Shown here: positions 25,232-55,692 of the stretch, one piece after another
Layout: each line of letters starts with the position of its first letter
Numbering within the stretch: position 1 is the stretch's first letter
Assembly: GCA_964016885.1 (NCBI GenBank)
Contig: OZ024746.1
Coordinates: forward strand, 59,706,001 to 59,770,000
Origin: Eledone cirrhosa
Lineage: Eukaryota
Length of the DNA: 64,000 nt
Direction of reading: 5' to 3'
Program-made: the position numbers and the translations under genes
Notes under the pieces: model-generated
Database searches by the model: none
What the model was told of the DNA's origin: nothing
The model's input: the letters and a program-made list of their open reading frames with translations, nothing else

Positions 25232-25542
25232 TGGAAAGTTATATTTAAAATTGTTGGGTTACAACTAGTAAATATTTATAACTGATATAAAAGCACTCGA
25301 CAAATATTTGGAGTATATTTACAATATTAAATAAATGGAAACTATATTTATAAAACCAGCTCAACCTCTCCAAATGCAAGTCGGTGTTGTTACGGTATGT
25401 CGAATCTATTTGTCTATAAAACTGTTTATATTGTATTTTGTCTGAGGAAGGCATAGCATATTGTTAATATGATATCCCCGAAATATATATAATGAAATAA
25501 ATATGGTTTTATAAATATAGTTTCCATTTATTTAATATTGTA
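25232..25542. mobile_element. Hammerhead element family A, inverted-junction copy in (TA)n
   Basis: Family 3' tail on minus strand (~25232-25358) joined to a plus-strand hammerhead segment; ~40-bp arms at 25320-25358 and 25503-25542. Confidence 0.8.
25434..25499 (+). ncRNA. Minimal hammerhead ribozyme (family A)
   Basis: TATTTTGT CTGAGGA [AGGCATAGCATATTGTTAATATGATATCCCC] GAAA TATATA TA ATGAAATA; 8-bp stem I with two GU pairs. Confidence 0.8.
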
Positions 25543-26750
25543 TATATATATATATATATATATTCACTATGAGTTTACCGTATCCATATATACTAAGTTT
25601 CTCCTGCCTAGCATTGTTGAACTCGAGGTTAATGATAAAATATTCACTTGCCTATGGTTACATGCAATGTTATGGACACCGGAGCTTTGTATTTGTCCGA
25701 GGAATTCCTATATATTCTAGTATAAATATGTATGTTTGTGTATACATACATACTTACATTCATTCATACATACATACATACATACATACATACATACATA
25801 CATACATACATACATACATACATACATACATACATACATACATGTCATACATACATGCACACACATACATACATATGCACATGCACGCATATAACTCAAA
25901 ACATACATGCACACATACAATAAGGTCCATACCTGCACACACATGCATACATATCTACCTAGTTGTTGTGTAGATTCCAATAAGAGAGTCTTGTATCGAT
26001 GTTAGAAACCGACTCTCTGTTGGCAAAAATTTGTGAAATTATAAAACCAGAAGAACATACTTACATACATACACATACATACATACATACATACATACAT
26101 ACATACATACATACATACATACATACATACATACATACATACATACATACATACATACATACATACATACGTATATTTATGTGTGCATACATGTGGATGT
26201 GTGCATATATATGTTTGTTATGGTCAATATGCAGCAACTGTTGGTTTTTAAACAATACTATTGATTTATAAATGTTTTTCTCCCCGCTTTCTTTTTTGCA
26301 TAATCGTTAAATTCATGAACCGGGTATCCCACCCTCTGAAGTAATAATGCTCTAACATATGTTTATTTTCACGATAGATATTGAACTTATTACCGTCAAA
26401 CAAAAAAGACACACTAACACTACTTGGACCAGTGAACTATACTACAATACTACAATGTGGTATCTATATACAGCCATGTGGAGTGAACCGTTAAGAATTA
26501 GGTGTGGATTTGGGTGCATGAGAACCGAGATACGCACCAGTATACGGGCTGGTTGTTCCATTTTCTATAAAGTTCGGTGGTCGTCGGCTTTCAATGCACA
26601 AATAACATACAACATATATACAGGTATATATATAGAGATATAGATATAGATAAATATATATATATATATATATATATATATATATATATATATATATATA
26701 TATATATATATATATATATATATATATATATATATATATATATATATATA

Positions 26751-26872
26751 TCTAAGGCGGGTAAAATTCCCGAGATCCATGGACGAGTTCTCTCCAGCGG
26801 TCTCTGTCCCTCATTATCGCTGCCATATCCTGCATCTCCAACAGACCAGTGTCTGTCCTTAGGGCATCAACA
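26751..26872 (-). mobile_element. Short LINE 3' remnant
   Basis: Minus translation ..[20 protein letters not shown] resembles a LINE ORF C-terminus. Confidence 0.5.
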
Positions 26873-27103
26873 TATATATATATATAACAGGTTATATATA
26901 TATATATATATATATATAACAGGTTATATATATATATATATATATATATATATATATATAACAGGTTAACATATATATATATATATATAACAGGTTATAT
27001 ATATATATATATATATATAACAGGTTAACATATATATATATATATATATATATATATATATATATATATATATATACACACATATATATATATACATACA
27101 TAT

Positions 27104-27318
27104 ATAAAACAAAGAGGGTGTGGTAAGATACCAGGTAGACCATAACGCACCAGGGTACTCGATACTTGGGGTAGTAGAGTGGGTAATATGAAAAGAATCG
27201 GGACCCCCACTGCTGAGCTTGAAGCCGTTTCAACAGCTCGATCCAGGACTGGTGGCTTTGTTTGTATCTAGTTGTCGAAATGGCCAGAGCTCAGCTGTCG
27301 GGGTCCTGACTCTTTTCA
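27104..27318. mobile_element. (TA)n-embedded fold-back element, family G
   Basis: Homologous to 44023-44203; internal inversion AAAAGAATCGGGACCCC..GCTGAGCT / AGCTCAGC..GGGGTCCTGACTCTTTT. Confidence 0.65.
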
Positions 27319-27525
27319 TATATATATATATTCAGGTTTGAGGTTCACCATTGGATAGAGCTGGTCAATTCCGTATGGTCAATCTTAATGTAATAATATG
27401 GAGAGTACTCAACGTAAAGCAGTTCAACCGTCTTTGTTTTTGTAGTTGGTGGTGCTAGTACGGAGTTAAATATTATAATAAAATGACAGGAGGCTGGACT
27501 TGTGTAAATCCTTGAAAGGTATATT

Positions 27526-27583
27526 ATACTATGATCATTTCAATGACCGGGTTCCGTATGAATCCGGTGATATCATCAGGTAT
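27526..27583 (-). ncRNA. Minimal hammerhead ribozyme (family C, left arm)
   Basis: Reverse complement of the motif at 27766-27823. Confidence 0.8.
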
Positions 27584-27765
27584 TCGAAATATAATAAATG
27601 AATGTAATAGATAAAATCCATGGGGCTGAAAATCAAAGACCGGAGGACGACCGACATCTAGCATCTTCCACTTTTGCCGGTCGCCCTCAAGATGTTGGTT
27701 GTCCTCCGGTCTTTGATTTTCAGCCCCATGGATTTTATCTATTACATTCATTTATTATATTTCGA

Positions 27766-27823
27766 ATACCTGATGATATCACCGGATTCATACGGAACCC
27801 GGTCATTGAAATGATCATAGTAT
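27766..27823 (+). ncRNA. Minimal hammerhead ribozyme (family C, right arm)
   Basis: ATAC CTGATGA [..ACCGGATTC..GAACCCGGT..] GAAA TGATCA TA GTAT. Confidence 0.8.
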
Positions 27824-53061: not shown

Positions 53062-53092
53062 TAGAACTGTTTCATTCGGGGGAAATCATCAG
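53062..53092 (-). ncRNA. Candidate hammerhead core
   Basis: Minus: CTGATGA T TTC CCCC GAA T GAAA CAGTTC TA; spacing is right, stem I is not evident. Confidence 0.45.
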
Positions 53093-53313
53093 GAATGCTC
53101 TCTCAGCTGTCTCAGTGGCCTACGGGTAGAGATCCTGGTCTTGGGTTCAATCCTGGTCAAGAGGTACATATATATATATATATATATATATATATATATA
53201 TATATATATATATATATATATATATATATAAACATATATATATATATATACATATATATATATATATAATATAATATATATATATATATATAATATATAT
53301 ATATATATATGTA

Positions 53314-53531
53314 TATACAATATTAAATAAATGAAAACTATATTTATAAAACCATATTTATTTCATTATATATATTTCAGGGATAACATATTAACAATAT
53401 GCTATGCCTTCCTCAGACAAAATACAATATAAACAGTTTTATAGATAAATAGATAAATATTTGTCGAGTGCTTTTATATCAGTTATAAATATTTACTAGT
53501 TGTAACACAACAATTTAAATATAACTTTCCA
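53314..53531. mobile_element. Hammerhead element family A: inverted hammerhead arm joined to 3' tail
   Basis: Minus-strand hammerhead at 53359-53424 (CTGAGGA core) fused to a plus-strand tail ending ATATAACTTTCC-(AT)n. Confidence 0.8.
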
Positions 53532-53778
53532 TATATATGTATATATATATATATATATATATATATATATATATATATATATATATATATATATATATAT
53601 ATATATATATATATATATATATATATATATATATATATATATATATATGGAAAGTTATATTTAAATTGTTGGGTTAACAACGAGTAAATATTTATAACTG
53701 ATATAAAAGCACTCAACAAGTATTTGGAGTATATTTATGATATTAAATAAATGGAAACTATATTTATAAAACCATATT

Positions 53779-53844
53779 TATTTCGTTATATATATTTCAG
53801 GGATATCATATTAACAATATGTTATGCCTTCTTCAGACAAAATA
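53779..53844 (-). ncRNA. Minimal hammerhead ribozyme (family A, left arm)
   Basis: Reverse complement of 55202-55267. Confidence 0.8.
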
Positions 53845-55201
53845 CAATATAAACAGTCTTATAAATAAATAGATACGACATACCTTTCAATCACCTTGCA
53901 TTTGGGAGGTTGATTTGGCAGTAAAAAATATTGTGGACAGTTGTAAAAAGAAAGAGAGAAAGAAAGAAAGAAAGAGAAACGAAGAAAAAGAAGAAATGCA
54001 TGTGACTAAATAGAGAGATATAGAAAGATAGATAAAGAGAAGAACTTCATGTAAAGAAACAGAGAGAAATATATATAGAGAGAGGAAAAAAAGAAAGAGA
54101 TAGATAGAGATAGATAGAGAAACTAGGAAGTTGAGTATCGGTTGATACATTTATTTATTTATTTATTTATTTATTTATTTAGCTCTAGTATTAATGTAAA
54201 GAGAGATATATGTAGTTAAGAGAGAAAATAGCCGTTATTTTTATTTTTATTTTTATTTTTATTTTTATTTTTATTTTTATTTTTATTTTTATTTTTATTT
54301 TTATTTTTATTTTTATTTTTATTTTTATTTTTATTTTTATTTTTATTTTTATTTTTATTTTTATTTTTATTTTTATTTTTATTTTTATTTTTATTTTTAT
54401 TAATATATTGAAATCTGTTCTCTATTTCTGCTTGATCGACAATCATGTAGAGTAAAGACAAGAATAGTATTGTTAAAATTAATATAGACTCTATATATAT
54501 ATGTATGTGTATATATACACACATATATGTATACTTGAATTTTTATAGCACAATGAGAATGTTTTCGTGTGAATTGGGAGTTTGTTTATAATTATGATAT
54601 AAACATATGAATTTTTTAAAAACTAGACATAAGATCATTACTTTCACACATTATAGATACATGTCTCATTCATGAATACTGATATTTACATTATAATGCC
54701 TGTTTTATACGAACTAATATTTTCTACGGGATAAAACATAGCGGTTTTAAATTCTGCCTCGTTTATGTCTGGCTATGTTTCATTTTCTCTTTTTCATTTT
54801 CTCTCTCTATATAACGGCTATTTTCTCTCTTAACTACATACATCTCTCTTTACATTAATACTAGAGCTAAATAAATAAATAAATAAATAAATAAATAAAT
54901 AAATAAATGTATCAACCGATACTCAACTTCCTAGTTTCTCTATCTATCTCTTTCTTTTTTCCTCTCTCTATATATATTTCTCTCTGTTTCTTTACATGAA
55001 GTTCTTCTCTTTATCTATCTTTCTATATCTCTCTATTTAGTCACATGCATTTCTTCTTTTTCTTCGTTTCTCTTTCTTTCTTTCTTTCTCTCTTTCTTTT
55101 TACAACTGTCCACAATATTTTTTACTGCCAAATCAACCTCCCAAATGCAAGGTGATTGAAAGGTATGTCGTATCTATTTATTTATAAGACTGTTTATATT
55201 G

Positions 55202-55267
55202 TATTTTGTCTGAAGAAGGCATAACATATTGTTAATATGATATCCCTGAAATATATATAACGAAATA
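55202..55267 (+). ncRNA. Minimal hammerhead ribozyme (family A, right arm)
   Basis: TATTTTGT CTGAAGA [stem II] GAAA TATATA TA ACGAAATA; stem I has G-C where the 25434 copy has G-U. Confidence 0.8.
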
Positions 55268-55692
55268 AATATGGTTTTATAAATATAGTTTCCATTTATT
55301 TAATATCATATATATATAATATATATATATATATATATATATATATATATATATATATATATATATATACATATATATATATATATATACATATATATAT
55401 ATATATAATATATATATATATATATGTATATATATATATATATATACATATATATATATATATATATATATATATATATATATATATATATATATATATA
55501 TATATATATATACATATATATATATATATATATATATATACATATATATATATATATATATACATATATATATATACATATATATATATTATATATATAT
55601 ATATATATATTATATTATATTATATTATATATATATATATATATATAGAGAGAGAGAGAGAGAGAGAGAGAGAGAGAGAGAGAGAGAGAGAG

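Follow-up and report, generated by a model that had tools for sequence, protein, structure and literature searches.

The question raised by this stretch of Eledone cirrhosa DNA (assembly GCA_964016885.1, contig OZ024746.1, positions 59,706,001 to 59,770,000; 64,000 nucleotides (nt), hereafter the window) is how insertions in (TA)n microsatellites come to consist of two arms joined head to head, one carrying a terminal tail and the other ending short of it. The assembly is 3.0 Gb in size and rich in (TA)n, and the palindromes of the window were listed by self-comparison of its sequence (Table 1). Judged by their sequence, these insertions are the 5'-truncated, head-to-head ends of Penelope-like retrotransposons (PLEs) of the Hydra clade. 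They probably arise when a single RNA is bound at two hairpins by two molecules of the element's protein, each strand of the cut target then priming reverse transcription. PLEs are the closest retrotransposon relatives of telomerase, and PMC8557442 counts the origin of their inverted repeats and of the one-sided tail among the unsolved problems (papers are cited by PubMed Central number, for the passages searched).

Fixed end points and one tail per insertion

Copies of family A were collected in three genome searches of 40 matches each, with queries bearing the tail, lacking it or lying in the open reading frame (ORF), together with their flanking DNA. At an identity of at least 90%, 157 of 172 ends fell at two points, 83 at the end of the tail and 74 at the tail-less point, with 12 tandem read-throughs and three ends elsewhere; at 75% or above, the 221 ends divided into 98, 100, 15 and eight, respectively. 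The outer end points are thus not random. Repeats of (TA)3 or more adjoin 83/83 tail ends and 69/74 tail-less ends in the set at 90% or above. An earlier note on the window had placed tail-less ends at 25542, 38745, 43569, 53314 and 55310, with a shared motif merging into (TA)n, and these positions proved correct. Its extension of the pattern to families B, C and the 4056 element (family D) is likewise borne out: B, C, D and F (the 27107/44016 family) each have ends of two classes, and their tails are about 87, 137, 65 and 80 nt long. For the 62195 element (family G) the same layout was found, in bystander copies only, but the hairpin motif described below is absent. Genome searches with families G and H returned no matches; G was therefore read from bystander copies, and H from bystander copies and reads. 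In raw reads of three restriction-site-associated DNA (RAD) runs, (AT)n loose ends occur at the internal site in 5,290, 6,012 and 7,881 reads, and opposite-strand joints occur at many positions, most of them common to all three runs; these runs are polymerase chain reaction libraries from one study, and the match of their species label to the assembly is not proven.

The two end classes are combined in a regular manner. Before curation, 73 of 77 head-to-head pairs of family A were mixed (one tail-bearing and one tail-less end), three had two tails and one had none. Curation removed three pairs with less than 80% element cover (L151, L159, L032), leaving 72 mixed pairs among 74. Of the 50 uncurated pairs from the searches blind to the tail, 47 were mixed (p 1.9e-11 against an expectation of one half), and no other kind of pair was met in families B (15), C (11), D (17) and F (18), a total of 61/61. 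One-armed copies carrying the ORF stop at either end point. Within the window, the family-A tail is 89, 72, 90 and 89 nt long in insertions A1, A2, A3 and A5, and the tail-less arm is the longer in A1, A4 and A5, by about 570 nt in A5. A separate case, L123 (G000:C3:4921147-4926497), is a family-A insertion of 5.3 kb that switches strand three times and holds four copies of the pseudo-long terminal repeat (pLTR); its outer ends are still one with and one without a tail.

The tail end had been taken in the earlier note as the 3' terminus of the family, and hence of the RNA, with one primer placed there. This is not supported: 15/221 family-A ends run past the tail into the 5' untranslated region (UTR) and ORF of the next tandem unit, with a start codon about 40 nt beyond the tail end in L114. 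Families C and D also read through past the tail. Because tandem copies run on into the ORF, the supposed terminus is an internal position of the element.

The family-A end is preceded on its 5' side by a 3' UTR and, before that, an ORF with reverse transcriptase (RT) and C-terminal GIY-YIG motifs, including YRDD and VVY..YVG in L031/L114. The protein has 17 homologues at 33-41% identity, 12 of them with PF26215. The marks listed for the Hydra clade in section 11 of PMC8557442 are RWK, DKT, CxCX5C, CxxC and CxH with no CCHH, and members of the clade insert in (TA)n (PMC8557442). The family-A protein has RWR (a variant of RWK), DKT, CNCRNKSNC (CxCX5C), CDLC (CxxC) and CRH (CxH), with a single Cys inside the GIY-YIG core and no CCHH. 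A partial tandem, the pLTR, is present (the 15/221 ends that enter the next unit; L114), and a hammerhead core with stems I and II was found by motif scan and folding in families A, B, C and E, with cleavage predicted. Rfam scans gave no hammerhead or matching family, only microsatellite-driven microRNA matches below threshold, and a Pfam scan recognised no family in the A or H proteins. No relative with a solved structure was found, nor any relative in the viral contigs searched. A predicted complex of two N-terminal 250-residue copies, made with no alignment, is uncertain in its fold. The Hydra membership of families B, C, D, E and F is putative and comes from their common hairpin and layout; endonuclease-region similarity occurs in two B and two C loci of 109, and family D is a non-coding tandem unit. 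Many copies of families H and I (L271-L298) have full open frames of 758 and 714 amino acids, which suggests recent activity.

A hairpin beside both end points

A bulged hairpin of the form RCTC-stem-loop-TY-GAGY follows both family-A end points, 7 and 9 nt on, and between its two copies an A-U pair is replaced by G-C. Across the 4.4 kb of the L114 element, these two sites alone match the pattern, against 0.59 matches per shuffle. The hairpin was found at both sites in families C and D and at the first in B, E and F, where the second site was not seen. The pattern was defined from families A to F and then tested on new cases. In families H and I, which were found by protein search and whose end points were taken from bystander copies and reads, a hairpin lies 6-9 nt downstream of the end point at 4/4 sites, in strict form at the first site of each and as a variant at the other (I has an extra bulge, and H a GCAC/GTGC stem without the bulge). 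Tail length would then be set by the distance between hairpin 1 and hairpin 2.

The hairpin also occurs in other organisms. A marine metagenome scan gave 78 loci, of which 62 with an ORF start formed 54 clusters, 45 of them with at least 150 nt upstream; the 16 loci with no ORF start and seven more that were mis-anchored were left out. Two or more strict matches were present in 21 of the 45 clusters, one in 12 and none in 12, and the matches numbered 55 in 11,845 nt of upstream sequence versus 38 in 113,284 nt of ORF. Among the hammerhead-bearing Hydra PLE loci of the metagenome, 20/22 (a set containing two near-duplicate pairs) have the twin hairpin between the hammerhead and the start codon, and in 19 its copies are 54-74 nt apart. 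In a test anchored without requiring inner pairing, the inner positions were paired, by several pair types, in 62/63, 42/63 and 34/52 distinct hairpins versus 49, 28 and 20 in shuffles. Moreover, 14 of 19 metagenomic 3' ends with flank stop 0-7 nt before a hairpin (chance 0.094), five at the first and nine at the last. Both hairpins are also present in the published consensus of Hydra-1_Ajap, whose start lies 2 nt ahead of hairpin 1.

The earlier note had proposed that complementarity to TA chooses the internal site. An overlap with TA of at least 3 nt is present at 10/13 sites (background 0.227, p 5e-5) and of only 1-2 nt at the other three, and only 5/19 metagenome ends abut (TA)n. TA-likeness does not choose the end points: family A makes no use of three equally good TA tracts, 5-7 nt long, at -204, -115 and -59. 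That note gave the end geometry correctly but did not recognise the elements as PLEs, for which the tail and the inverted arm are published, nor the hairpin that accompanies both sites.

In the literature searched, with figures outside its scope and most subscription papers and Repbase reports not covered, the twin hairpin is undescribed and the rule of one end of each kind is not given as a count. The words 'hairpin' and 'stem-loop' are absent from the supplement of PMC8557442, in the part searched, and three supplement files of PMC11167929 gave no match. The element class and its layout are known; the cis-element is new and makes the mechanism directly testable. A 20-nt motif predicting both end points across unrelated families would allow an in vitro test on a minimal RNA with two sites to mutate, and gives curators a boundary rule for Hydra PLEs. 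In addition, a large share of the insertions are near-perfect palindromes and would, if transcribed, be a ready source of double-stranded RNA; such palindromes have been linked to heavy adenosine-to-inosine editing (PMC5625713).

Inner junctions and the origin of the two arms

Inner junctions were tabulated for 56 of the 74 curated family-A pairs, the remaining 18 being left out as having the junction in the 5' part of the ORF, as complex, or as masked by microsatellite matches. In 25 of them the tail-less arm exceeds the tail arm in length, in 29 the reverse holds, and in two the arms are equal; 54/56 junctions are distinct, so that no single common junction exists. The priming from both cut ends suggested in the earlier note is supported by these unordered arms and distinct junctions. 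Its statement that the same segment is copied twice is right for 51/56 junctions but not for all: in five pairs the tail arm is confined to the tail, and in window insertion A4 the tail-bearing arm spans -78 to -4 (tail only) and the other arm -223 to -86, so that nothing is duplicated. The arms overlap by 1-8 nt at 27/49 junctions, meet flush at two and are separated by a gap or insert at 20. In 29/56 pairs the 5' ends of the arms are no more than 25 nt apart, versus 15.6 expected (p 2e-4), and arms of one insertion differ by 1.3% on average. Subfamily variants are common to both arms 290 times versus 28 not, and in 33 young copies seven variants are shared versus a permuted mean of 0.97. Variant sharing and the coupled arm 5' ends favour, but do not prove, one source RNA for both arms. 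No arm starts were found at the predicted hammerhead cut (about -139), with 0/112 arm ends in that 10-nt bin. In three-copy insertions, comparison of the 5' and 3' pLTRs as source of the inverted arm found only a handful of differences, too few to choose between them, and the row for L035 was a spurious match. A transcription start at about -277 behind the junction hot zone is not claimed, because the first search picked arms of at least 242 nt.

From these observations an integration route can be outlined. The GIY-YIG domain would cut both target strands at TA, and each 3'-OH would prime a few bases 5' of one hairpin, with 1-8 nt of TA pairing as an aid. As PLE RT is not known to have RNase H, the cDNA begun at hairpin 1 would be displaced by the subunit that starts at hairpin 2, and one segment would be copied twice; the two truncated cDNA ends would then be joined by microhomology, end-joining or snap-back. 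Within this route we infer the dimer, the single template and a role of the hairpins at the RNA level. With slightly less assurance, we lean towards a wider view in which the hairpins are an undescribed, deeply conserved pair of RT docking sites for a dimer on a single RNA, bidirectional priming is the programmed mode of integration, and the tail and inversion are its footprint.

Both 5'-truncated inverted copies and a one-sided tail of 30-40 bp are published PLE features (PMC8557442, PMC3846280). The present families resemble the Hydra clade of Craig et al. (2021, PMC8557442) in motifs, pLTR hammerhead, (TA)n target, inverted truncated copy and tail at one end, but their tails are about 65-137 nt long rather than the published 30-40, and the twin hairpins and the rule of one end of each kind are not described in the passages searched. 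The Poseidon PLE of the green anole (Frangieh et al. 2024, PMC11167929) lends support to dual docking: in vitro, both strands are cut and extended at an AT-rich target and RT starts at two internal sites that bound the tail, with a dimer predicted. Unlike here, the starts of that element are located within its ORF, in an AC-rich stem-loop; in the text searched, that paper has no twin motif and does not treat inverted insertions ('inverted' being found once, unrelated). A second subunit is also recruited for the second nick of R2 (PMC13486585), a loose parallel. Pen2a_Av and other rotifer Penelope elements (Arkhipova et al. 2013, PMC3846280) likewise have head-to-head inverted pLTRs, a palindromic junction and an optional tail on one arm.

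L1 twin priming likewise yields a 5' inversion from two cut strands that each prime on the element RNA, but the segments copied do not overlap, and the sites used are the poly(A) end and an internal one that varies. By contrast, the two sites of the present elements are fixed and internal, and the segment is duplicated in most pairs.

Several observations weigh against dual docking on one RNA. Two curated family-A pairs are real exceptions (L136 with two tails, L127 with none). The earlier note had both arms in every copy, but many insertions have a single arm within the flanking DNA examined: of the 40 anchors in each search, 5, 12 and 16 lacked a partner there. The hairpin definition was post hoc, two of the four in-genome test sites (in H and I) fit only as variants, and family G has no RCTC/GAGY hairpin. 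In the metagenome, 12/45 clusters have no strict match, 5/19 ends miss the hairpin, and the covariation counts ignore kinship. Wobble pairs in the hairpin, with G-T at eight and A-C at three (p 0.23), do not distinguish which strand folds. Private variants are common to both arms 15 times versus 86 not, and the variants that arms do share could have arisen from two RNAs of one locus or by gene conversion. PMC11167929 saw no strand difference in start site, and the start site was not homologous to the cut DNA. Finally, for this clade the proposal is a prediction from sequence.

Among the alternatives, double priming at both hairpins on two RNAs of one locus, or on two pLTRs of one tandem transcript, is possible but unlikely. 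It avoids strand displacement, explains the doubly copied segment and the free arm order, and can call on tandem pLTRs, which exist, and on PLE hammerheads, which have been proposed to act as dimers and could hold two pLTRs together (PMC4209133). However, it gives no simple reason for the rarity of pairs with two tails or none (2/135) and leaves the coupled arm 5' ends unexplained.

No more likely is that the hairpins are GIY-YIG recognition sites on a DNA intermediate, the ends being cut at nearby TA during resolution rather than marking RT starts. Craig et al. regard the tail as a product of endonuclease-mediated resolution (PMC8557442); recognition by the D. virilis endonuclease depends on the tail, according to work cited in PMC11167929; the ends are TA-rich like the target at the ten sites noted above, and the wobble count does not settle which strand of the hairpin folds. 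Against this, RT starts were mapped directly at both tail boundaries in the Poseidon PLE (PMC11167929), ORF-bearing one-armed copies stop at either site, and tail-only arms need a template bearing the tail independently of the long arm.

Considerably less probable is single priming at the tail end, followed by fold-back of the cDNA and capture of the copy by TA microhomology at the internal site. This comes near the self-priming on an antisense template proposed for rotifer elements (PMC3846280), and the near-symmetry of 29/56 junctions, the overlaps of 1-8 nt and the variants shared by arms suit it. However, it predicts a longer tail arm, which is the shorter in 25/56 pairs, sometimes by kilobases (L132, with L152 as the reversed case); it also leaves the unused TA tracts unaccounted for, and the unordered arms argue against self-priming as a general route. 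The free arm order and variable junctions exclude both tail-arm fold-back and a fixed palindrome as general models, although fold-back can still describe the closure of some inner junctions. A pre-formed palindrome moving as a miniature inverted-repeat transposable element, or an assembly or library chimera, can be given almost no weight: family B does repeat a few junctions, in a query-biased sample, but its repeated microhomology junction (L161, L165, L166, L167) is found in both mirror-image forms, the tail being now on one arm and now on the other, while family-A junctions are nearly all distinct with unequal ends, arms differ in sequence and joints recur across three independent read sets.

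Features of the window

Table 1. Insertions, hairpins, hammerhead cores and dispersed repeats in the window (window coordinates)
Feature	Position	Strand	Remarks
Family A insertion A1	25233..25542		tail-bearing arm 25233-25358 (-); tail-less arm, longer, 25361-25542 (+)
Hairpin 1 (tail start) in A1	25295..25314	-	
Family A insertion A2	38322..38745		tail-bearing arm (-), 72-nt tail; tail-less arm (+)
Hairpin 1 in A2	38367..38386	-	
Family A insertion A3	43569..44000		tail-less arm to 43736 (-); tail-bearing arm 43731-44000 (+)
Hairpin 1 in A3	43918..43937	+	7 nt 3' of tail-less end point
Family A insertion A4	53314..53531		tail-less arm (-) joined to tail-only arm (+); no segment duplicated
Family A insertion A5	53649..55310		tail-bearing arm 53649-54238 (-); tail-less arm 54239-55310 (+)
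Hairpin 1 in A5	53711..53730	-	
Minimal hammerhead core (CTGANGA-stem II-GAAA) of pLTR	43814..43854	+	motif scan and fold; cleavage predicted
Further hammerhead cores	25442 (+), 38645 (+), 38493 (-), 53416 (-), 53836 (-), 55210 (+)		motif scan
Family B two-armed insertion	38792..39242		tail about 87 nt; hairpin 1 at 38849-38873 (-)
Family C two-armed insertion	27332..27880		tail about 137 nt; long-loop hairpin 1 at 27407-27466 (-)
Family C second copy	20209-20574		one-armed
Family D (4056 element)	4060..5016		tail-less inverted arm and partial tandem
Family D hairpin 1	4464-4485 and 4954-4975		
Family D hairpin 2	4536-4551	+	sole hairpin 2 within the window
Family F two-armed insertion	27107..27321		hairpin 1 at 27157-27180 (-)
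Family F second copy	44016-44203		hairpin at 44076-44099 (-)
Family E two-armed insertion	55691..55955		hairpin 1 at 55889-55908 (+)
Family E further copies	near 19490-19711 and 20636-20705		
Family G (62195 element)	62192..62614		two-armed layout as in other families; tail about 52 nt; no hairpin motif
Older family-H subfamily, two-armed copy	52972-53170		hammerhead core at 53092 (-)
SINE-like family copies	1158-1340, 23806-23990, 28343-28505, 44711-45340, 47308-47428, 48644-48822		

Family G, seen in the window and in L131, L135 and L245, is a non-coding tandem unit of about 360 nt with a hammerhead core and the octamer ATGCAAAT. It is retrozyme-like, has two end classes and may be served by another PLE clade. 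A decayed GC-rich RT element at 59960-61970 (-) has PLE-like motifs and is weakly similar to Hydra proteins.

The window also contains three fragments of long interspersed nuclear elements, one at 6169-8112 (-) with RVT_1 and zf-RVT, one at 7999-11713 (+) with APE endonuclease, RVT_1 and C2H2 fingers, and a third at 18285-19200 (-). In addition, there is a 34-bp tandem array at 13957-16948 (88 copies, 94% matches) and a dispersed family resembling short interspersed nuclear elements (SINEs), about 180 nt long and present in at least ten copies.

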